DNA of 64,000 nucleotides from an uncultured delta proteobacterium (GTDB lineage Bacteria; Desulfobacterota; Desulfobacteria; Desulfobacterales; JAHEIW01), in assembly GCA_963706575.1 (NCBI GenBank), contig CAVPNL010000012.1:160001-224000 (forward strand), written 5' to 3'. The notes below the pieces were generated by a model, which was given only the letters and a program-made list of their open reading frames with translations, ran no database searches and had not been told where the DNA came from. Below, piece by piece: positions 44,052 through 55,044 of the stretch. A program made the position numbers and the translations under genes. How positions within the stretch are numbered: the first letter of the stretch is position 1; the number at the start of each line of letters is the position of its first letter.

Positions 44052-44367
44052 CTTTTAATTCTTTCCTGTATGCTCTTCTGATACCGTCGTCCTGATTTAA
44101 AGTCAATATTTAATGCGTTTGCAAGTATCGGTAATTACATAAGTTATTGTTTTCATTAGAACCGACTGTATAAACGATGGAATTTATGAACCTAAAATAA
44201 ATAGTTCATGTCAGTTATGTCAGTTCTCGGTGATCATAGTTGATTTAACAATCACCACTGTTAAGATTCACTTGACTTGACAACTACCAATTATGGTATC
44301 TGTACTTTTATGAGAATTGGGATATCATCTACGTATCTGTATTTTAGCGATTTTGCATGTATTCTCA

Positions 44368-44475
44368 GAGACTGTCGAAAAACCCAAAATCCGTAAAATT
44401 GGTGTTTGTAAATTATTGATTTCATTGCATGCGAAATTACTAAAATCACCATTTTGGGACTTTTTCGACAGTCTC
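44368..44475. mobile_element. MITE with 15-bp terminal inverted repeats and TCA target duplication
   Basis: GAGACTGTCGAAAAA / TTTTTCGACAGTCTC, flanked by TCA on both sides. Confidence 0.8.
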
Positions 44476-44787
44476 TCAATATATCACCAGTGGCATTAGG
44501 CTGAAAATGAACAAATTAATTAACAAGTTTTTGCAATTAATATCTACCACAAAGTATCGCTTTCCTATTGACAAGAGTATAGTTATCAAATATCAGAGGG
44601 TCACATGTGTTCTTTTTTAAGCTTGATTTCAGTTGAAATTGTTTTCCAAATTTAATTCTCTATGCAAATCATATTTACCTGTTGAGCGACCCTTCAAACT
44701 CTATTTTTCCATTCCCGCTAAAGTTGAGAGCGCCTTCTATTTAAATTTTATCATTGGCTATTTAACCGTTCCAAAAAGGAGGAGATT

Positions 44788-45855
44788 ATGGAAATGGACG
44801 TTTACAAAAAATTGGCCGACCATCTTGATAACCTCCCAGGTGGTTTTACACCCAGCGATACTGGAGTAGAACTTCGCTTGCTTAAAAGGCTGTTCACGCC
44901 CGAAGAAGCCGAATTATCAGTACATCTGACTCTGGAACAAGAGGAAGCCAGTGCTATAGCTAACCGAGCCGGAATATCCATAGACGAAACAGAACAGAGA
45001 CTGAAAGTGATGGCTCGTAAGGGGCTCATTTTTTCTATAGAGACTGACGACAGTTCAGCGCTGTACCAAGCTGTTCCATGGATTATTGGTATCTACGAAT
45101 TCCAGGTGAACAAGTTGGATAAAGAATTTGTTGAGGATCTAAACGAATATAGAAACACAATGCGCAAAGACCCTCGACCGCAGCCATTACCACAGATGCG
45201 AACGATTCCAGTGGGTCAAAGTATTGAAGGCAATTTGGAAGTGCTCCCCTATGAACGTGCTGAAGAGCTGGTGAAAGCCCACGAAAAATATGCAGTAGCG
45301 CCTTGTATCTGTCGTCGAAAAGCCAAGCTAATGGGTTCGGGATGTGAAGCACCAGAGGAATCTTGCCTCTATTTTGGTGACTGGGCGGACTATTACGTTC
45401 GAAACGGTCTGGGACGGTACGTTGACAGGGACAATCTACTGGATATTTTGGCTAAAGCTGACAAGTCCAACTTGGTGTTGCAACCCAGCAATTCCAAGGA
45501 AATCTCTTTGCTTTGTACTTGCTGCGGCTGCTGTTGTGGTGGGCTGTTACGTCTCAAGCAGCTTCCCAAACCCTCTGAAGCAGTTGCCAGCTCTTTTGTT
45601 GCAACGGCCACACCTGAAACTTGCGATGGCTGTGGGACTTGTCTGGACCGATGCCAGATGGAAGCTCTGACTCTTGAGGATGAGCAAGTGGTCTTGAATT
45701 CGGATCGCTGTATTGGTTGTGGATTATGTGTATCAACATGCCCTACGAGCTCATTGATTTTGAAGCGTAAATCTGTGAGTAAACATGTTCCCTTGAATAT
45801 GGAAACTACTTGGAAAGAATTAAGCTTGGCACGAGCAGAAAAACAACAAGAATGA
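44788..45855 (+). CDS. 4Fe-4S binding protein with N-terminal HTH-like domain
   Basis: CICR, CTCCGCCC, CDGCGTCLDRC and CIGCGLCVSTCP motifs. Confidence 0.9.
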   Translation: MEMDVYKKLADHLDNLPGGFTPSDTGVELRLLKRLFTPEEAELSVHLTLEQEEASAIANRAGISIDETEQRLKVMARKGLIFSIETDDSSALYQAVPWIIGIYEFQVNKLDKEFVEDLNEYRNTMRKDPRPQPLPQMRTIPVGQSIEGNLEVLPYERAEELVKAHEKYAVAPCICRRKAKLMGSGCEAPEESCLYFGDWADYYVRNGLGRYVDRDNLLDILAKADKSNLVLQPSNSKEISLLCTCCGCCCGGLLRLKQLPKPSEAVASSFVATATPETCDGCGTCLDRCQMEALTLEDEQVVLNSDRCIGCGLCVSTCPTSSLILKRKSVSKHVPLNMETTWKELSLARAEKQQE

Positions 45856-46277
45856 TCAATAACTTCATGTGTCGATCTTAACCAATTACCATTATTGATT
45901 TGTGTCGAAGGGATTCCTAATTAAACCTCTGATTACTCTCCAACATATCGGCGAAATTGACCGGCCTCCAGAAGTTGTGATATTTTCGCATATCTGTAAA
46001 ATTGAGATAGTTGGGTTTCTCTCAATGTATCGGTAGTTGGCTGATAATTGGTTTTTTGGTAAGGTATCACCACATGTCGGAACTCCCAATATTGATTGAA
46101 AAACCCCGTCGATTCGTTTATAAATTCTATTATACAATTTCTGATGCACCACTCCAGCTAACCGGAAGCTGTTCTCCTTTTCCTGAATCGAATCTTGCTG
46201 CTGATCTGATGCTACGCTTCACTGATTGATCTACATACTTAGTTCTTTAGTTTGAAACCTTAACGAAGGGGTTTCCT

Positions 46278-48171
46278 ATGGCAGATGAAGGTTTTAAGCG
46301 CAAGCTAACCGCAATTCTCAGCGCCGATGCAGTTGGGTACAGCCGTCTCATGGCAGAAGATGAGGCTGCCACTGTAAAAACTATCGCTATCTACCGTGAA
46401 ATCATGTCATCTCTGATCAAACAGCACAGGGGTCGAGTCGTTGATTCACCAGGGGATAATGTGCTGGCCGAGTTTTCCAGTGTGGTCGACGCCAGTGCAG
46501 TGTGCTGTGGCTGTGCAAAAGGAAATTCAGGCCCGAAACGCAGAGTTGGCCGAGAACCGTAGAATGGAGTTTCGCATTGGAATCAACCTTGGGGATGTCA
46601 TTGATGAAGAAGGTCGCCTCTACGGCGATGGAGTCAACATCTCGGCCCGGCTGGAGGCACTGGCAGACCCTGGGGGTATATGCGTTTCAAAGACGGTTTT
46701 TGATCAAATCGAGACCAAACTACCGCTGGGCTATGAATATTTAGGAGAACAGTCAGTTAAAAATATACCCAAGCCGGTTGGTGCTTATCGGGTCTTGATG
46801 AAGCCTGATGATGCTGGCAAAGTGATTGGTGAAAAAAAATTTTTAGGTCGGTATTCACGCAGGACAGCGATGGCCACCATTATAATTCTGATCGTAGTAG
46901 CAGTAGGTTTAGTTAGCTGGAATATTTATCTTCAGCAATCTAAACGAGTAGAGCCAGCATCTTTAGATAGAATGGCCTATCCATTGCCAGATAAACCATC
47001 GATCGCAGTATTGCCATTTGTTAACATGAGCGACGACCCTGAGCAGGCGTATTTCAGTGACGGGATCACGGAGGATATCATCACGACCCTGTCCAAAGTC
47101 CCCAAGCTGTTCATCATCGCACGGAACTCGACATTTACATACAAGAATAGATCGGTCAAGGTTCAGCAGGTGGCAGAGGAACTGGGTGTGCGGTACGTGC
47201 TTGAAGGCAGCGTAAGGAAGGCGGGAGAAAAGATCCGTATTACGGCCCAGCTGATCGACGCCGTTAATGGCCATCACCTCTGGGCGGAACGATTTGACAG
47301 GGATCTGAAAGACATCTTCGCCCTTCAGGACGAGATCGCCATGAAGGTCCTAACCGCGCTGGAAGTTAAGTTGGTCGGGGGACATACTTCCCTTTTAATC
47401 TCAAGAGGGACCGATAACTTGGAGGCGTACCTGACTGTCTTACAGGGTCGCGAGTTTCATGAGCGCTCGAACAGGGAAAACAATTTCATGGCTCGACAAA
47501 AATTCGAGGAAGCTCTGGCCTTGGATCCCAACTATGCCGCCGCCTTCAACCTGCTTGCCCGAACCCACTTCATGGACGTCTGGCTCGGATCCAGTAAATC
47601 CCCCAAGGCGTCGCTCATAACGGCCATTGATCTAACACAGAAAGCTATTGTCTTGGACGATTCACTTGCGGATTCGCACGCACTCCTCGGCTACCTCTAT
47701 ACCCTGACGCGGCAGCACGACAAGGCGATTGCGCAGGGGGAGCGGGCCGTGGAGCTCGATCCCAACTCCAGTTTAGCTTATCTTTGGCTGGGAACCAGCC
47801 TCAATTATATTGGAAGAACTGAGGAGGCCGTGGCCATGATTGAAAAGGCGATCCGCCATAACCCAATGCCCCCCAGTTCGTGGTACGTTTTCTTAGGCTC
47901 GGCCCTGTCAAACGCAGGGCGGTATGACGAGGCGGTAACCGCGTCCCGGAAGGCCGTAGAACTGTCACCAAACAACATTTTCGCACAACTCGCACTGGTG
48001 TTGTCTTGCAATCTGGGCAGCCGCGATGAGGAGGCCCGTTCCGCAGCGGCCGAGGTCCTCCGGATACAGCCGAATTTCTCAGTAGATAATTTCGCTAAGA
48101 GAATGCCCTATAAAGACCCGGCGGACATGCAACGGATAGTGAAAGCGTGGCGCAAGGCGGGGCTGAAGTGA
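46278..48171 (+). CDS. class III adenylate/guanylate cyclase-TolB-like-TPR protein (frameshift near 46492)
   Basis: RKLTAILSADAVGYS, GDNVLAEF, FRIGINLGDV, YGDGVN..ARLE, PSIAVLPF, then TPR repeats. Confidence 0.9.
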
Positions 48172-48365
48172 GGGAAAGCAAGGCACTACATGTTATGGCT
48201 TGGCTTATTTTCTTTAGATTGCATATATCATTAAAAATCACAGCCGTTTTGGGATTGTTAAAAACTGTGATTTCTCCAACCTGTACGACATAAAATGATA
48301 ATTGACTAAACAGTCGATCGAGGTCATTATCTACCTGTTTTTTCTGCAAAAAGCGAAAGGAGGTA

Positions 48366-49448
48366 GTGATGAACCTCGAGCATGTGTCTGCAGGAAAAAG
48401 CACATACAGCCCCACAGCGATCCAGCCCAAAGCGATTCAACTTTCAATTTTTCCCAAAATATCTCTTCGCCCCGCCTATCATGTATCTAATGAACAGATC
48501 GAGCGCACCCTGCGGCGAATATCCGCTGAAGGGTTGTGTGGCAGCGATATGGTGCGCGATTACCTTTGCCGGCAGCTACGGCACAACTGCCGGCCCAGCA
48601 CCATTCGCAGCAGCGGAACCACTATCGTGCTATTTTTAGAGTTTTTTAAGCAAAGCGGCGGTCAGCAGTTGGCGGCAGCAGGTCCAGAGCATATCAGCGC
48701 TTTTGTTGAACATGAGCAAGATCGTGGTATGGCGCCAAACTCGGTGGATGGACGGCTAAAGGGATTGTATGCGTTTTTAAATTTTTTAGTTGAGCACGAG
48801 GTTATCAGCGCGGATGTGATCAAGCGTAAGCTTCGCATCAGGGTGCCCCAGGCCCTGCCGCGGGCCATTGATCCGGAGGATATTAAGCAGCTGTTGGCGG
48901 CAATAGAAAAGCCTCGGGATCGGGCGCTGATACTAACGCTTCTTCGCACCGGCATGCGTATCGGCGAGCTTTTAAGCACCAGGGTTAAGGATATCAATCT
49001 GCGCGAGCAACTGGTTCAGATCTTTGAAGCACATAAAAATCGGGTGGGCCGGGTGGTCTATCTTAGCGCTGATGCGGTGGGCACCTTGGAAAAATGGTTA
49101 AAGACAAGAAAATATCAGAGCAAATTTATCTTTTATGGCTATGATGTTGGACCGCTTTGCTACCAAGCGGCCCGTGCGATGTTCAAACGCTATATAGACA
49201 AAACCGGTCTGGCCCACAAGGGCTACACGCTTCACTGCCTGCGTCACACATACGCCAGTGAGCTGTTAAATGCCGGTATGCCGCTGCAATGTCTGCAGGA
49301 GCTTTTGGGTCACAAAAGCATTGAGATGACGCGCCGATATGCGCGGCTAACCGACAACACGCGTCGCAAGGCTTATTACCAGGCGATGACCATCATTGAA
49401 GCAGGAGAGATCAATGGGCATTACCGACTCGATTATCAACTACCGTAG
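48366..49448 (+). CDS. tyrosine recombinase A
   Basis: TGMRIGE, HKNR, HCLRH, LGH and TRRY catalytic motifs. RBS AAGGAGG. Confidence 0.95.
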   Translation: MMNLEHVSAGKSTYSPTAIQPKAIQLSIFPKISLRPAYHVSNEQIERTLRRISAEGLCGSDMVRDYLCRQLRHNCRPSTIRSSGTTIVLFLEFFKQSGGQQLAAAGPEHISAFVEHEQDRGMAPNSVDGRLKGLYAFLNFLVEHEVISADVIKRKLRIRVPQALPRAIDPEDIKQLLAAIEKPRDRALILTLLRTGMRIGELLSTRVKDINLREQLVQIFEAHKNRVGRVVYLSADAVGTLEKWLKTRKYQSKFIFYGYDVGPLCYQAARAMFKRYIDKTGLAHKGYTLHCLRHTYASELLNAGMPLQCLQELLGHKSIEMTRRYARLTDNTRRKAYYQAMTIIEAGEINGHYRLDYQLP

Positions 49449-50334
49449 ATCGTTAAAAAGGCGCAACTTCTCTAAATACACCATCAGAAATTACATGAGC
49501 ACACTGAAGCAGTTTGTCATTTGGCTGGATGTGCCCATCGATAAGGTAACCCACCAAAAGCTGGTGGGCTTTATCGATGATCTGTTGGCCAAGCGCCTGA
49601 AACCCAAGACCATCAACTGCTACCTGGACAGCATCCGCGGCTTCTATGACTACCTGATCTGTGAGGAGCAACTTAAGATGCAAAATCCGGTGAAACTCGG
49701 AGATACACTGCGCATGTCCAAGCCACTGCCGCGCTTTTTGCGAGATGAGCAGGTGCGGACGCTTTTTGCACAGATCGATGATCCAAGGGATTTGGCCATC
49801 TTCAAGCTGATGCTGCGCTGCGGCCTTAGGGTGCAAGAGGTGGCCAAGTTGACTCTTGCCTCTGTGGATTTAAAACGCGCCCAGGTGTTTGTCTACCATG
49901 GCAAGGGCGCCAAAGAACGGATGGTTTATTTAAGCAAAGATGCCTATCAGGCGCTTTTGGCCTATCTGAAGGTCAGGCCTTTCTCCCGGGCCAAAAGGCT
50001 TTTTTTGGTCAACAAGGGCCGCTTTAGAGGCCAACCGCTCAACGTTCGCGGCATCCAGCACCGTATCAAATACTACTCGAAAAAGGCGGGCTTTAAGGTC
50101 AGCTGCCACCAGCTGCGCCACACCATGGCCACCCAGATGCTCAATGCCGATGCGGATTTAGTGACCATCCAGGACCTTTTGGGCCACGCCTACATCACAA
50201 CAACCGAGCGGTATTGCCGTGTGTCGAACCAGAAAGTGCGAAGGGATTACTACCGGGCAATGGATAAAGTAATCGAGCGCCACAGCCCGGTCGGAAACAA
50301 AAGACTTGACAAAGAAGAAATTTTGATTAATTAA
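49414..50334 (+). CDS. tyrosine recombinase B
   Basis: CGLRVQE, GKGAKER, HQLRH, LGH and TERY motifs. Overlaps gene A by 35 bp. Confidence 0.95.
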   Translation: MGITDSIINYRRSLKRRNFSKYTIRNYMSTLKQFVIWLDVPIDKVTHQKLVGFIDDLLAKRLKPKTINCYLDSIRGFYDYLICEEQLKMQNPVKLGDTLRMSKPLPRFLRDEQVRTLFAQIDDPRDLAIFKLMLRCGLRVQEVAKLTLASVDLKRAQVFVYHGKGAKERMVYLSKDAYQALLAYLKVRPFSRAKRLFLVNKGRFRGQPLNVRGIQHRIKYYSKKAGFKVSCHQLRHTMATQMLNADADLVTIQDLLGHAYITTTERYCRVSNQKVRRDYYRAMDKVIERHSPVGNKRLDKEEILIN

Positions 50335-50459
50335 AATGGAAGCTAACTAATTAATATTAATAGAAATAACAGGGTTTATGTCGTACAGCTCCAACATATC
50401 GGCACTTTTGAACCCCTCGCAAAAGTTGTGATACTCGTTTTATATCTGCAATCATAAGG

Positions 50460-50547
50460 GCCAAGACAGTTCCGACCATTCTAATCTAATCGAACTATTT
50501 TTCCTCTACCAACCTCCGTCCTTGAAAGCTACACTTAGCTCTGATAT
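50460..50547 (+). repeat. about 88-bp promoter-containing direct repeat, copy A
   Basis: Aligns to 51492-51580; contains TTGAAA-N17-TATCAA. Confidence 0.8.
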
Positions 50548-50591
50548 CAATTATGTATAAAGTTGACCTTTAGAAATACAGGAGCTGCGAA

Positions 50592-51479
50592 ATGCCACTT
50601 TACAAAATCCTTCCAGACGGACAAACACTTGAAATTGTTAAGAGAAAAGAATTCTCATATGAAAAAGACCTTCATATTCTTATAGACAGGAATCTCCTCA
50701 GTTTATTGGGAATAAGGTTAATTGCGAGTGAGTACCCAATTCCAAATGGAAGAATCGACACTCTTGGACTTGATGAAGATGATATTCCTGTAATAATAGA
50801 ATATAAAAAAAAGAAGGATTTAAGCGCAATCGTTCAAGGCTTATTTTACCTTGATTGGATTATGCAGAACAAAAAGCCCTTTGGGTCGATAGTTAAAGAT
50901 AAGCTAGGCAAAAGCGTGGATGTCAACTGGTCAAAGCAGCCTCGCCTTCTCATCATTGCACAAGATTTCGATGTCAAAGAATTAACGGCTATTAATCAAA
51001 TGGGTCCAAGAATTGAGTTGGTCAAATATTCATTCTACGAAGGATTATTCAATATTGACGGTGTGAATATCGTTGAGGCCAAATCACCACCCAAAAAAGA
51101 TGAGGGCGAAAAGCCTTCTGAAGATTATACGGTTGAGCAATTGGTTAAGAAAGCAACCCCAGAAATTCAATCCCTATATATGGAATTGCGAGAGAAAATA
51201 ACCGCTATTTCTGAATCTGTGTGGGAGAAAGTTCATTCATATTATTGCGATTTCCGCACTACCTCAACTTTTACCACTGTAAATGTGCAAAAGACTCAAC
51301 TTAAGATCTTTTTAAAGATGGGTGAACGCGAGGTTGATGATCCTAAAGGTCTTACTAAACCAGTCCCTTCAAGTTGGGGCTATGGTCACTTAAATACTCA
51401 GTTCCTTATTTCAAAAACTGATGAAATTGATGACGCAATGCATTTGATAATGCAGGCTTATGATTATGTTTCAGGATAA
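50592..51479 (+). CDS. PD-(D/E)XK (NucS-like) endonuclease domain plus DUF5655-like domain
   Basis: EKDL, GRIDTLGLD...VIIEYKK; C-terminal WGYG...I...DEIDDAM.LI.QAY. Confidence 0.8.
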   Translation: MPLYKILPDGQTLEIVKRKEFSYEKDLHILIDRNLLSLLGIRLIASEYPIPNGRIDTLGLDEDDIPVIIEYKKKKDLSAIVQGLFYLDWIMQNKKPFGSIVKDKLGKSVDVNWSKQPRLLIIAQDFDVKELTAINQMGPRIELVKYSFYEGLFNIDGVNIVEAKSPPKKDEGEKPSEDYTVEQLVKKATPEIQSLYMELREKITAISESVWEKVHSYYCDFRTTSTFTTVNVQKTQLKIFLKMGEREVDDPKGLTKPVPSSWGYGHLNTQFLISKTDEIDDAMHLIMQAYDYVSG

Positions 51480-51491
51480 TTTTTAATTCGC

Positions 51492-51580
51492 GCCAAGTCA
51501 GTTCCGACCATTTTGATCTAATCAAACTTTATTACCTCATCGAACCTCAGTCCCTTGAAAGCCGCACGCACCTTTGATAT
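51492..51580 (+). repeat. about 88-bp promoter-containing direct repeat, copy B
   Basis: GCCAAG.CAGTTCCGACCATT.T.ATCTAATC.AACT ... CCTTGAAAGC ... TGATAT shared with copy A. Confidence 0.8.
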
Positions 51581-51722
51581 AGATGCATATCAAATAGTTC
51601 CCGCATTCTGATGTTCTCTATATATTAACATTGCTTGGTAATAAAAATGCTTAGGTTTATACAGATCCTTTTAGGGGTCACTATCCCGGCGCCGGCCAAT
51701 ATTGTTCAATTCATATTTCAAC

Positions 51723-51762
51723 AAAAAAGCCGAGTCACCCACTAATCGGGCAATCTCGGCTT
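51723..51762 (-). terminator. intrinsic terminator of the 52889-51829 operon
   Basis: AAGCCGAG...CTCGGCTT stem with an A-run on the + strand. Confidence 0.55.
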
Positions 51763-51828
51763 GCTGGCTACTTTGGCCAATACCATAAGGTCTGGCCGTT
51801 TTGCTGGCTTGGTAATATGTGTAATTGA

Positions 51829-52023
51829 TTACCTTAGCTGCAATTTTCTGTTTTTAGTATGTTGCAGCTCGTAAACTCTCTCCAATTGGTCTCCCTTTAG
51901 CAACAGGGGAAATAGTCCGTCGAAGTCCTCAATGTGAAATACGAAACGCTCAGAGACTGAATCGTAATAGATCTCATAGGGCTTTCTGAATTTGCTTTTT
52001 TTAAAAACTATAGGTTTTTTCAA
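51829..52023 (-). CDS. small hypothetical protein
   Basis: TTG start overlaps the upstream stop; RBS AAGGAG. Confidence 0.55.
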   Translation of the reverse strand: MKKPIVFKKSKFRKPYEIYYDSVSERFVFHIEDFDGLFPLLLKGDQLERVYELQHTKNRKLQLR

Positions 52024-52889
52024 CTTGGCTCCTTGTCTAACAATTTATATAGATCCACTGATACGGGAGACTTTGACAAAAATTTTTCAAGCTTTTTATC
52101 TGTTTTCAACTTTTGTTGTTTTTCCGTGTAAGTGCGTTCAAATTCAGATTGATAAGCGTCTAGGGCATTTTCTATAAAGGAAAGGTCGTCAAGCACCTGT
52201 CTGTGTTCCTCCGAGCTAAATGTTCTCTTTGATTCGACAATATCCCTGATCGCTCCGACCCTTTTTCTTGCGAAGATGGGCGGTGTCACTATCATTTCCC
52301 GAGTTTCACGGTATTTAAGCATGTTAAACAGGAGTATTGCTAATGCTGATTTTTTATCAAACTCATCACCATCAACCTTTTCCAATTTCCTTTGCAATGT
52401 GATAACAAATCTTAGGAGTAGAAAAAAAACAGCCTCGCTGTAATGGTTTGCCTCAAACAGCATCTTTTGGTAATCATCCGATGGAATGCCAGGATCAATC
52501 TCGTAGGGATTCCAAGCGGGCAGTGTGGTTTTTGTCCGTTTAATAATTTCAGACGCAAACTCGATGGCGTGAGCATAAGAAGACTCATAAAATTCGGGGT
52601 CAGTCCTCCATTTCCGCAACAGACCGTATGAAACATCACAACTTTTTGCGATATCCTTTAGCGTCCAGTTTGTTATACCAGCCAGCATAGCAGCATAATA
52701 TTTTTTCCGTGAAAAACCGATTTTCTCGCCTTTGGAGGTGCCTGCTCTTGTCGGTTGCTCGTAATCGTGGAGATGATATAGAACATATTCACCAATGAGC
52801 GCAGAGATATTGCTCTCGGGTTTCTGGGTAAGCCGTCTGATCTCCTCCCATAAACGATCTGATTCTGTCATTTTGTTAGATTGTGCCAT
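52020..52889 (-). CDS. HTH-containing phage/island-type protein
   Basis: TLKDIAKSCDVSYGLLRKWRTDPEF helix-turn-helix. Confidence 0.75.
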   Translation of the reverse strand: MAQSNKMTESDRLWEEIRRLTQKPESNISALIGEYVLYHLHDYEQPTRAGTSKGEKIGFSRKKYYAAMLAGITNWTLKDIAKSCDVSYGLLRKWRTDPEFYESSYAHAIEFASEIIKRTKTTLPAWNPYEIDPGIPSDDYQKMLFEANHYSEAVFFLLLRFVITLQRKLEKVDGDEFDKKSALAILLFNMLKYRETREMIVTPPIFARKRVGAIRDIVESKRTFSSEEHRQVLDDLSFIENALDAYQSEFERTYTEKQQKLKTDKKLEKFLSKSPVSVDLYKLLDKEPS

Positions 52890-52936
52890 TTCGCTCCCTA
52901 CTGATTGAATCCAGTGTGATAATCAAAAAACAATAT

Positions 52937-52971
52937 AAGTAACATATATAAAAAAATGTTACTTTTGTCAA
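52937..52971 (-). promoter_or_regulatory. operator palindrome overlapping a -35 TTGACA promoter
   Basis: AAGTAACAT-N10-ATGTTACTT next to TGTCAA (52966-52971). Confidence 0.5.
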
Positions 52972-53169
52972 ATGTTTTTTTCATCAAATTGAATTTTGGG
53001 CAAAAGCTATTGGAATGATTCGATTTTTATACAATTAAGGAAGGGATATTAGAAAACAAAAACCCGCTGCCGAAACTGCGGGTCGTGAGATTCAAAATAT
53101 AATAGTATGGTAAGCAGGGATATAAAATCCAGCCATAAACTGGGCGTAAATTATTATTCGAAAAATTTA

Positions 53170-53580
53170 TTAACCGACTTCATCGGGTTTTTTTATCGCA
53201 AAATTTTTTTCGTTTTTGCTTTTTTCATCATCATTAATTAAAGTTATTAATTTATAATTCCCCTCTTCCTTTGCTGTCACTGGGGAAATAATCATATGAA
53301 ATTGAAATCTAGTATATCCCTTGATGTGTTCTGGGGGGCCACCCTTTACTTTTTTCCCAATCCGATTCCCAGAAGGATCTAAGAGTTCAGCTGAAAAAAT
53401 ATCGCCTCCTTTAATGTTTTCATAATTTATTACAAAACAGAGCTTGGGGAAGGTAAAGGGAAATTTTGGAACAAAGATATCTTTGGCATAAACGCCCATC
53501 ATCGAAATTTTATTTCCCACCTCTTCCCTTATATCATCACAGATTAGTGTGAAATTACATTTCGGTTTTTTCGCTGGCAT
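53170..53580 (-). CDS. DUF6941-like protein
   Basis: ICDDIREEVGNKISMMGVY motif. Likely start ATG 53580 overlaps the antitoxin 3' end. Confidence 0.7.
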   Translation of the reverse strand: MPAKKPKCNFTLICDDIREEVGNKISMMGVYAKDIFVPKFPFTFPKLCFVINYENIKGGDIFSAELLDPSGNRIGKKVKGGPPEHIKGYTRFQFHMIISPVTAKEEGNYKLITLINDDEKSKNEKNFAIKKPDEVG

Positions 53581-54244
53581 ACCATCCCTCTGAAGAAGCA
53601 TCTGAATTGGAGGAAAACACTTGTTCTGTATCCATCTGCGAAACCCCTGATGAAAATAAACTATCCTCCGCGTATGTCGATTGTGGGTCTCTCACACCCA
53701 AAAAAACCGTCTTAGGTCTCTGTGTGCAAGGATTAGAGATTTGCTGCAACCTGACTTTGTAATCGTCTTGATAAAACTCAGCAATAATTTGATAGAACAT
53801 CTTTGTTTCTTGAAGACGTATCTCAGATAGATTTTTCAGTATTTTTTGCGAATCTTCAATCTTTATTCCCTTATAAATCATATAGGTAGCTCTAATTAAT
53901 CGGTCATTTGTCTCGCTGTGATTTTGAAGGTCATTTTCCCATTTTGAATAAGTTGTGCTCCCTACCCCCAAAGCAGATGCAAATTTTTTTGATGGAAAAT
54001 GCATATTTTTTCTTAAAAATTTAATTTCGCTACCATTTAGCAAAGAATGTTTTTCCAAAAGAACCGACGCAATTAAATCGCTCAGATATCCCACTCGAAA
54101 AATTGAAGGGTACATTATGCCGCAATTGCACTCATAAACGGGAATATTATGGATATTTACGTTGTATAGACCAGATTCTCTATACCAATAATCCCCTATT
54201 TTCGGCTGAATTAATTTGCCACAACCGGGACATTTATTTTTCAT
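53555..54244 (-). CDS. YgiT/MqsA-type zinc-finger-HTH antitoxin with C-terminal extension
   Basis: CPGC...YECNCG zinc finger; EIKFLRK...FASALGV..TTYSKWEN Xre-type HTH. Confidence 0.85.
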   Translation of the reverse strand: MKNKCPGCGKLIQPKIGDYWYRESGLYNVNIHNIPVYECNCGIMYPSIFRVGYLSDLIASVLLEKHSLLNGSEIKFLRKNMHFPSKKFASALGVGSTTYSKWENDLQNHSETNDRLIRATYMIYKGIKIEDSQKILKNLSEIRLQETKMFYQIIAEFYQDDYKVRLQQISNPCTQRPKTVFLGVRDPQSTYAEDSLFSSGVSQMDTEQVFSSNSDASSEGWYASEKTEM

Positions 54245-54253
54245 TATACAGTC

Positions 54254-54562
54254 CTATTTGTCCATGATTGTTATACAAGCCACTTCTCGATGACCAACTA
54301 TTACTGTTACTACAGTTGCCTTATCACCATCAATTGCATAACCGGTGGCCTTATATTTCCAATCATCATGCTTTTTATCATATTCTGGGGCTTCGGTAAC
54401 CATGCAATTCGAAAGCAGGTATTCTAGATCCTGCATATCGAATCCCCTTTCTTTCATTCTTTCCTGGCAATGAGATCTTGGTGTAATCCATCCCAATTTA
54501 GCAATCTCCCTGATTTTTTGCTGGGCCTTTTGTGGTGAAAGTCTATATTTATTATCGGTCAT
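54254..54562 (-). CDS. DUF4258 family (RelE/MqsR-fold) toxin
   Basis: SHCQERMKERG..MQD, WKYKATG and CITI motifs; lies upstream of the antitoxin. Confidence 0.8.
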   Translation of the reverse strand: MTDNKYRLSPQKAQQKIREIAKLGWITPRSHCQERMKERGFDMQDLEYLLSNCMVTEAPEYDKKHDDWKYKATGYAIDGDKATVVTVIVGHREVACITIMDK

Positions 54563-54583
54563 AACAACAAAAAGTCAAGAGAA

Positions 54584-54606
54584 AAAGTTGGTTTTAAACC
54601 AACTTT
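54584..54606. promoter_or_regulatory. perfect 11-1-11 palindrome, probable antitoxin operator
   Basis: AAAGTTGGTTT-T-AAACCAACTTT immediately upstream of the toxin gene. Confidence 0.65.
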
Positions 54607-55044
54607 ACAAAAACTCACGGGTTCATATTTCATCATGGGGATATCTATTTTAAATTTTTAAAACCGTTCTGTGCAAGAAAAAAATAAAAACCCCGACCGA
54701 AATCGAGGCTTAAAAAAATGACATAAAAATGACAATCACACAAAATACTGACAATCAATTTAAAGCCCTATTCCAAATTGGAACTTTAAAAACGGCATGA
54801 AAATATTCCATGTCAGTTAATGTCAGTTCTGATGGTTTTCAGTTTAATTCTAATCCCCCAACTTATTGTATTCCTATATAAAATAAATTTTTGGCCTCCT
54901 GATTTAAAGTCAAGCGAACATTCAACTGCTTGAGCGGTCAAAATTTTGACAACCACCGGTTGCTCCCAATTGATTTTCTCTCCCAATCATAGCGCAGCGC
55001 TTAAGCTCTCAATTATTTCGCAGGGTAGTATGCCGGTATAATAT

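Follow-up and report, generated by a model that had tools for sequence, protein, structure and literature searches.

The window analysed here, 64,000 nucleotides of contig CAVPNL010000012.1 from an uncultured delta proteobacterium of the Desulfobacterales (assembly GCA_963706575.1), contains a mobile element with two tyrosine recombinase genes that interrupts one copy of a repeated intergenic site, downstream of genes for a 4Fe-4S cluster protein and an adenylate/guanylate cyclase and upstream of a NucS-like gene. A first-pass annotation, made from the sequence alone, had described this site as two boxes repeated within an island and had suggested that such sites are protein-bound recombination sites, unlike integron attC, that delimit gene cassettes and are exploited by a site-specific element. 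In this report, we interpret the site as boxes A and B of a genus-wide three-box junction between co-oriented accessory genes, describe the insertion of the element in the core of box A, and consider how cassettes might be exchanged at such cores. The best reading, in which we place about even confidence, is an integron-like cassette system that does not depend on attC sites. Relatives are designated by G numbers, G000 being the present genome, and contigs by C numbers.

The two-recombinase element and its insertion site

The element is 2,108 bp long, ends in perfect 14-bp inverted repeats (IR) and is flanked on both sides by CTCCAAC (48274-48280 and 50389-50395, read directly and located by script; Table 1). 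Its two overlapping open reading frames (ORFs) are both intact, and both products contain PF00589 (Phage_integrase; 2.7e-39 and 2.6e-36 for recombinases 1 and 2) and the SAM-like N-domain PF02899, which is weak in recombinase 1 (3e-4). The catalytic motifs R..K..HxxRH..GH..Y are present in both, at positions assigned by eye, and the closest solved structures are XerA and XerD (4A8E, 5HXY, 1A0P). With R-K-H-R-H-Y, a SAM-like core-binding domain and no arm-binding domain, the two proteins have the make-up of simple (Xer-like) tyrosine recombinases; neither reaches the NCBIfam equivalog cut-off for XerC (335; scores of 153.7 and 202.7 bits) or for XerD (330; 137.4 and 177.1 bits), and the genome's own XerD- and XerC-like genes are separate, on C3.

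Deleting 48281-50388 together with one CTCCAAC restores TCTCCAACATATCGGC-N19-AAGTTGTGATA-N8-ATATCTG, base for base as first claimed, and the intact match was likewise confirmed, with the same 16-mer (45937-45952), N19, the same 11-mer (45972-45982) and N7-ATATCTG ending at 45996, the spacer being divergent. Measured from the stop codon of the upstream cargo gene, the two sites begin after 82 bp (45855 to 45937) and 102 bp (48171 to 48273), in keeping with the 80-100 bp given earlier. The 16-mer alone is weak evidence (2 matches with up to 3 mismatches vs 0.52 expected, a count of 2 being reached in 10 of 100 shuffles). The composite site lies well outside what chance would give: a profile of the whole unit, run against the whole 5.67-Mb genome, recovered the two sites with E=2e-21 (45938-46040) and E=6e-11 (50389-50452). 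Two weaker variants noted at about 46015 and 44362 are real, but they are not variants of a two-box site and represent instead a third box with the core TCTCAAT; the two boxes first described stand as boxes A and B, of a unit that has three. A second genomic copy of the element (C1:17-2124), 99.6% identical, also lies within a box A, reading GATTA-CTCCAAC-ATATC. Integration of the element in the box A core by site-specific recombination is well supported.

Table 1. Features in and around the island; positions are those of the window unless a contig is named
Feature	Position	Strand	Remarks
17-bp direct repeat TCCTGATTTAAAGTCAA, left copy	44090..44106	+	Bounds the 10.8-kb island
Junction unit 1	44284..44488	+	Degenerate box A-like 44284-44296; box B-like 44319-44339; box C split by the MITE between TCTCA and AT; weak profile match, E=7
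Miniature inverted-repeat transposable element (MITE), 108 bp	44368..44475		Inverted ends GAGACTGTCGAAAAA; in box C core, TCA repeated on both sides
4Fe-4S cluster protein gene (cargo)	44788..45855	+	Pfam Fer4 families
Junction unit 2, intact	45931..46040	+	Box A core CTCCAAC 45938-45944, right arm ATATC; box B GTGATAT-N6-ATATCTG 45977-45996; box C core TCTCAAT 46020-46026
Sigma-70-like promoter before the cyclase gene	46092-46125	+
Adenylate/guanylate cyclase gene with TPR repeats (cargo)	46278..48171	+	Two frames, 46278-46562 and 46441-48171
Left half of interrupted box A (attL side)	48266..48280	+	Arm TGTGATTT and core CTCCAAC
Integrative element, 2,108 bp	48281..50388	+	IR-L CTGTACGACATAAA 48281-48294; recombinase 1, 48366-49448; recombinase 2, 49396 (ATG 49414)-50334; IR-R, reverse complement of IR-L, 50375-50388
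Right half of interrupted site	50389..50452	+	CTCCAAC 50389-50395, arm ATATC, N19, box B 50428-50448; no box C directly after
NucS-like/DUF5655 gene with direct repeats	50460..51626	+	Gene 50592-51479 between ~90-bp direct repeats 50460-50547 and 51492-51580 (79-82% alike)
Boxes after the NucS-like gene		+	Box B-like 51575-51592; box C-like 51615-51626
17-bp direct repeat TCCTGATTTAAAGTCAA, right copy	54897..54913	+	Bounds the island
Other MITE copies (108 bp, ends GAGACTGTCGAAAAA)	C4:215094-215201, 292134-292241, 304760-304867, 360469-360576

A three-box junction between co-oriented genes

The junction has three boxes in the order A-B-C and a length of ~105 bp, and an iterated profile search recovers ~62 copies in the genome. 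Box A consists of a variable left arm, CTCCAAC and nTATC, and is followed by ~19 variable bases; box B reads GTGATAT-N6/7-ATATCTG or ATATCAC; box C has a variable left arm, TCTCAAT and nTATC. Box C repeats box A in direct and not in inverted orientation. Fuzzy regular expressions for the boxes proved too unspecific (box B, 837 vs 828 in shuffled sequence; box A, 43 vs 21) and were abandoned for the profile.

By a crude ORF call, 59 of the 62 junctions are intergenic, vs about 15% non-coding DNA in the genome, and the neighbouring genes are co-oriented in about 90% of cases (upstream 54/61, downstream 55/60). Seven clusters amounting to 1.08% of the genome hold 43 of the 62 junctions, and adjacent junctions lie on the same strand in 39 of 40 pairs, which is the co-oriented layout of a cassette array of an integron or of an integrase-less attC cluster (CALIN). 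The cargo is diverse, with beta-lactamase-fold hydrolases, a thioesterase, kinases and receivers, cyclases, a globin, PilZ, a sulfur oxygenase reductase and many unknowns. The motif is not one of ordinary promoters across the genome; its copies lie between co-oriented accessory genes in arrays, and a comparison of the cargo found that it differs between species. Copies are present in the island, as the first-pass annotation had it, but the arrays extend beyond it to the whole genome and genus, the unit being found in 17 of 18 other genus genomes and in 1 of 12 sampled genomes of other families. Contigs C8, C12 and C14 of G000 end inside junction units; the repeat family therefore limits assembly, and the full extent of some arrays is probably greater than the contigs show. 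In G007, five co-oriented units (C9:356-5495; L188) form an array whose end lies ~250 bp from a divergent tyrosine recombinase ORF of 174 aa, truncated at its N terminus, a layout that is integron-like. Short or truncated recombinases near arrays, this one among them, were also considered as one family and rejected as such: they are heterogeneous (18-37% identical) and form no consistent family.

The palindromes within the unit allow a different account, namely that the junction is regulatory, its boxes being operators of a dimeric protein (GTGATAT-N6/7-ATATCAC palindromes) combined with terminator and promoter parts and spread together with the genes under their control. Box B and some copies of box C are indeed good palindromes, the next start codon lies 22-770 bp (median 196) downstream of the unit, a terminator-like hairpin is part of the long versions, and some units are followed by sigma-70-like promoters. 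However, the conserved parts of boxes A and C are asymmetric 7-bp centres, the part that a dimeric regulator contacts least, and their left arms vary; the distances to the genes are not fixed, recombinase elements with matching cores integrate in the boxes, and no regulator was identified. We consider the regulatory account very unlikely. A sigma-70 promoter within box C was rejected by eye, TATATC and TGTATC being poor -10 elements.

Element lineages and their 7-bp cores

Of 401 genomes sampled from the order, 32 contain homologues of recombinase 2 (E up to 1e-70), which are spread over 25 of 174 genera, and some genomes carry several identical copies each. Twelve copies of the element, one from the own-genome comparison and 11 from a wider search, had both ends located by the IR alone; the 7-bp flanking repeat is perfect in 10 of them, agrees in 6 of 7 positions in one and is mismatched in one (G021). 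The lineage with the core CTCCAAC is represented by two copies in G000, by copies in G015 and G217 and by one end in G012, and all five copies or ends abut CTCCAAC in identical orientation, which bears out the claim that a site-specific element exploits the site. The elements of G301 and G213 have the core GCTGTCA in common, at different sites, those of G293 and G046 have CGGCTAT, and the cores of other lineages are CTTGCCA, CATGCAG and TGCCATA. Every lineage is distinguished by a 7-bp core of its own, which is also present in the targets where it has inserted. Such lineage-specific cores, shared at different sites, argue for tyrosine-recombinase integration through an identical asymmetric overlap and not for random target duplication; the same core on both flanks, its sharing within a lineage and the fixed orientation together amount to the overlap identity of a site-specific integrative element. 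Compared by eye, the targets of the different lineages tend to have GAT(A/T)T as left arm and nTATC as right arm.

Box C is the target of a sister lineage. A de novo end search that demanded a near-perfect 7-bp repeat found elements with the ends TAAAACGTAACAAAAT, whose TCTCAAT flanks lie inside typical box C sites of G028 and G241, read as GGTTAT-TCTCAAT-ATATCGGTATTTGG and GGATAT-TCTCAAT-GAATCACC; in G028 a cyclase gene lies downstream of the site. There is good support for the view that two lineages of a single element family use boxes A and C as attachment sites.

Three further observations concern the family. The copy with unlike flanks, on C86 of G021, has TCTCAAT on its left (box C-like) and CTACAAC on its right (box A-like), and may have arisen by recombination between two insertions or through a mismatched overlap. 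Another element lineage, with the core ATAGCCG, has left remnants at C18:89.3 kb and C12:228.1 kb. An exact 14-mer scan of the genome collection yielded 119+ stretches, nearly all of them single matches in unrelated taxa that we took as chance, and only one record (L141) with two inverted copies at element distance.

Other mobile DNA at the same cores

The MITE lies in box C, between TCTCA and AT and with TCA repeated, in all five of its copies. Its parent insertion sequence (IS), ~1.9 kb long and encoding a DDE transposase (C1:180717-182626, and on C6 and C8), abuts GATAn-CTCCA with its left end in all 3 copies. One box A is split between CTCCAA and C by a group II intron (C4:301232-303093; L208), which contains an ORF for a reverse transcriptase/maturase and was identified by matches to the Rfam D1-D4 and domain V/VI models. 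No serine recombinase was found. On C18 (107480-108760; L039), a frameshifted gene for a small tyrosine recombinase lies between the half sites GTGATAT-CATCAAT and TCTCAAT-ATACATG, as if it were itself a cassette inserted in box C. A single-recombinase unit with A-B and C ends was considered and rejected, as the C18 gene, the one such gene of this genome, and four relatives share no such ends in alignment.

Breakpoints and cassette variation

Duplicated cassettes break at cores. The sample consisted of five duplicated segments, from which copies of the element, of the IS and of the MITE, as well as bare units, had been left out. By our own reading, about 8 of the ten segment ends lie no more than ~12 bp from the core of a box A or box C, one end is ambiguous and one is off-box; the boundaries are mostly at box C, with box A in one pair. 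One of the segments is a Zn-ribbon cassette present twice on C1 (3920-4291 and 174119-174490; 98.7% identical), in which the identity begins and ends exactly at TCTCAAT on both sides, with unrelated sequence beyond, and the arms of the two upstream boxes belong to different subfamilies. When the promoter-leader-cyclase module was searched against the genus, match starts clustered at the start of box A and at the core of box C (query 2338 and 2418-2423). The earlier proposal that the boxes delimit cassettes is partly supported, in that duplicated segments end at cores, mostly those of box C; the exchange of cassettes at the cores by site-specific recombination, with the element's recombinases as its agents, is what we infer from the breakpoints and the structure of the arrays.

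Cassette content also varies between species. At another locus, a cassette that carries an NYN-domain gene and follows boxes B and C has copies in G000, G015 and G004 that are 94-95% identical and stand in three different contexts, while the core genes flanking it are 74-78% identical across the three species; an unrelated gene occupies the orthologous locus in G004. The island itself (44107-54913) is a 10.8-kb insertion between perfect 17-bp direct repeats that is absent in 5 of 5 relatives, where the conserved flanks are 150-330 bp apart, and it has no integrase of its own except the nested two-recombinase element.

Neighbouring features of the island

A second direct repeat of the island, CATGTCAGTTA(A)TGTCAGTTCT, lies ~100 bp and 67 bp inside the ends (44204-44227 and 54807-54830), and PHROGs returned nothing useful on the minus-strand genes of the island. 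The cyclase-TPR gene, split over two frames, carries a frameshift or an assembly error; in contigs from public runs, single-base deletions are seen at 46492-46495 of this gene. A sigma-70-like promoter (TTGAnn-N17-TATAAA) and a leader of ~100 nt precede cyclase paralogues and Zn-ribbon genes, in the window (46092-46270) and at C1:177.3 kb, C4:306.3 kb and C1:10.9 kb. This conserved leader has no Rfam match and may be an undescribed cis-regulatory leader; Rfam gave no family at E up to 0.01 between 43500 and 55500. The ~90-bp repeat around the NucS-like gene recurs by another junction unit (C12:3802-3904), which suggests that boxes B and C have an additional point of insertion between them.

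Proposed cassette exchange at the cores

In the integron-like reading, the centres of boxes A and C are likely the points of cutting and rejoining for cassette exchange, and the exchange is probably carried out by recombinases of the element family acting in trans. The excised element would form a circle in which IR-R, core and IR-L make up a 14-7-14 site built like loxP, FRT or dif; this circle could recombine with a box that has arms near GATAT and ATATC and the same asymmetric 7-bp overlap, and the asymmetry of the overlap would fix the orientation. More speculatively, the two recombinases might divide the work, one binding to the ends of the element and the other to the arms of the boxes. 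If two boxes had the same core, recombination between them would excise a circle carrying a gene, which could re-enter at any box with that core. A wider proposal, to which we give somewhat less than even confidence, is that of a second, integron-independent cassette system with two heterospecific cores, served by core-addressed, portable pairs of Xer-like recombinases, its genus-wide junction repeat forming a shared platform for docking and shuffling.

Several observations weigh against exchange by these enzymes. The element or a relative is present in 7 of 18 genus genomes vs 17 of 18 for the junctions; these genomes are mostly fragmented metagenome-assembled ones, and absence of the element from them is therefore not established. 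The box arms GATAT and ATATC are unlike the ends of the element, which makes recognition of the boxes by its recombinases a conjecture; both box A and box C have left arms that vary, and the copies from the de novo search, preselected for the 7-bp repeat, are not independent support for that repeat. No recombination event was observed: among the public-run contigs (short unitigs, no run with more than 0.34 of the sampled words) none bridges an element, cassette or circle junction, and these contigs say nothing on excision. The breakpoints at boxes could come from microhomology-mediated or homologous exchange. A copy of the 4Fe-4S gene (90-91% identical) in G014 (C209) stands in an operon without boxes, so that genes also move, or reside, without the junction. 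Finally, some junctions are split, with A-B before and C after a gene (the NucS-like gene and an 83-aa ORF), an arrangement that a cassette model with one boundary does not predict.

Some of these points would fit boxes that are landing pads only, exploited by selfish elements, with arrays built otherwise and breakpoints left by homologous or microhomology-mediated exchange. The presence of three unrelated kinds of mobile DNA at the same cores (the recombinase pair, the IS/MITE family and the group II intron), the unboxed gene of G014 and the fact that no box-by-box event was seen directly are all in line with this explanation. Yet the two upstream junctions of the Zn-ribbon cassette share little beyond the 7-bp core and the adjacent arm, which is too short for ordinary homologous recombination, the breakpoints cluster at cores and not along the ~100 bp of homology, and strict one-way arrays of unrelated genes would be left unexplained. 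We regard landing pads only as unlikely.

The split junctions bear on another possibility, that the units are relics of small transposons of which A-B and C are the two ends, the gene-less 105-bp copies being miniature derivatives inserted between genes. A-B and C are separable and bracket both the NucS-like gene and the 83-aa ORF, the latter in an A..C segment duplicated at 94%, and the frameshifted recombinase gene on C18 lies between half sites. Against this, the core of box A differs from that of box C and thus is not a target duplication, the single-recombinase loci of the four relatives are without A-B or C ends in alignment, the occurrence of one cassette on different upstream arms fits exchange at the core and not transposition of the whole unit, and no pair of empty and filled sites was found for the whole unit. 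Transposon relics are in our view distinctly unlikely, and cassette exchange at the cores continues to be the reading that we prefer.

Integrons are the only well-understood site-specific shuffler of single-gene cassettes, and arrays that lack an integrase are common and unexplained. The present case gives a cassette-like array on a different site architecture, together with a concrete candidate for the enzyme, the two-gene recombinase element, which occurs in 25 of the order's 174 sampled genera, and with a rule by which further systems may be sought, namely that the core of the element is the core of its target. As orthogonal recombination sites, the 7-bp cores of the different lineages would moreover form a natural set. 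Among the papers listed, our literature search found no description of the junction or of a two-recombinase element with inverted ends.

Comparison with known systems

Integrons comprise IntI, attI and arrays of attC cassettes; the defining features of attC and CALIN used here are those of Cury et al. 2016 (PMC4889954). The present arrays resemble integrons and CALINs in being one-way arrays of unrelated, mostly single accessory genes with a repeated site, in content that varies among relatives, in the presence of the same cassette in several arrays and in the nesting of mobile elements in the sites. They differ in having no IntI over the cut-off and no folded palindromes with paired R and L boxes; in two 7-bp cores, in direct orientation, per junction and a palindrome B of variable spacer; in candidate recombinases that are paired on their own 2.1-kb element and not placed at the head of the array; and in long intergenic gaps, some with promoters. 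That the arrays are integron remnants, that is, a CALIN, is scarcely credible to us, although such a remnant would likewise show diverse single genes strung in one direction with a repeated site between them, and CTCCAAC agrees in 6 of 7 positions with the integron inverse core, RYYYAAC. With the IntI-specific model TIGR02249, the own genome (91.8% complete) gave 15 matches, the best of 85.2 bits and none over the cut-off of 265. An attC site, as a single strand, forms an imperfect hairpin in which R'' pairs with R' and L'' with L'. The units do not fold end to end: among 17 full-length units on both strands, at least 5 end-to-end pairs formed in 1 of 34 folds, the fold z-scores averaging -0.96 (top) and -0.74 (bottom). 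In addition, boxes A and C are direct and not inverted, and the breakpoints lie in TCTCAAT and not between G and TT of the R' box. The attC reading is rejected on the IntI score and the folding, as the first-pass annotation had anticipated.

The sites loxP, FRT and dif have inverted arms around a central overlap, and the joined ends of the element would likewise give inverted arms around an asymmetric 7-bp overlap. Xer-dependent elements are similar in requiring the same overlap in the target, in their fixed orientation and in the Xer-like nature of both proteins; the present element differs from them in bringing its own two recombinases, which score below the equivalog cut-offs (154-203 bits vs 330-335), in target arms unlike the element arms, and in a target that is a multicopy junction repeat rather than a single dif.

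Tn554 is not known to have inverted ends or a flanking repeat, whereas the element described here has perfect inverted ends and a 7-bp flanking repeat, and at 2.1 kb and with two ORFs it leaves no room for a third gene, such as the TnpC gene of the Tn554 family, within its 2,108 bp. The likeness to Tn554 lies in the tandem pair of tyrosine recombinase genes on a site-specific transposable element, TnpA and TnpB being encoded in tandem (PMC3414803, PMC8138268). The element is not a recombinase-in-trio (RIT) element, which has three tyrosine recombinase genes in a row, as only two recombinase ORFs lie between its inverted ends, and BIM elements were rejected as a parallel, being described as one recombinase with an unrelated protein and not as recombinase pairs.

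Finally, the pdif modules of Acinetobacter are bounded by oppositely oriented XerC/D sites, reside on plasmids and use the host Xer proteins. The present cassettes resemble them as gene modules that are bounded by short Xer-type sites in varied contexts, and differ in being co-oriented and chromosomal, with two core types per junction and dedicated portable recombinases. The mobile DNA at the cores has its counterpart in the IS1111-attC and group IIC-attC elements, which nest in integron attC sites: here too an IS/MITE family and a group II intron are placed at a fixed position of the core, in a target that belongs to a different site family.

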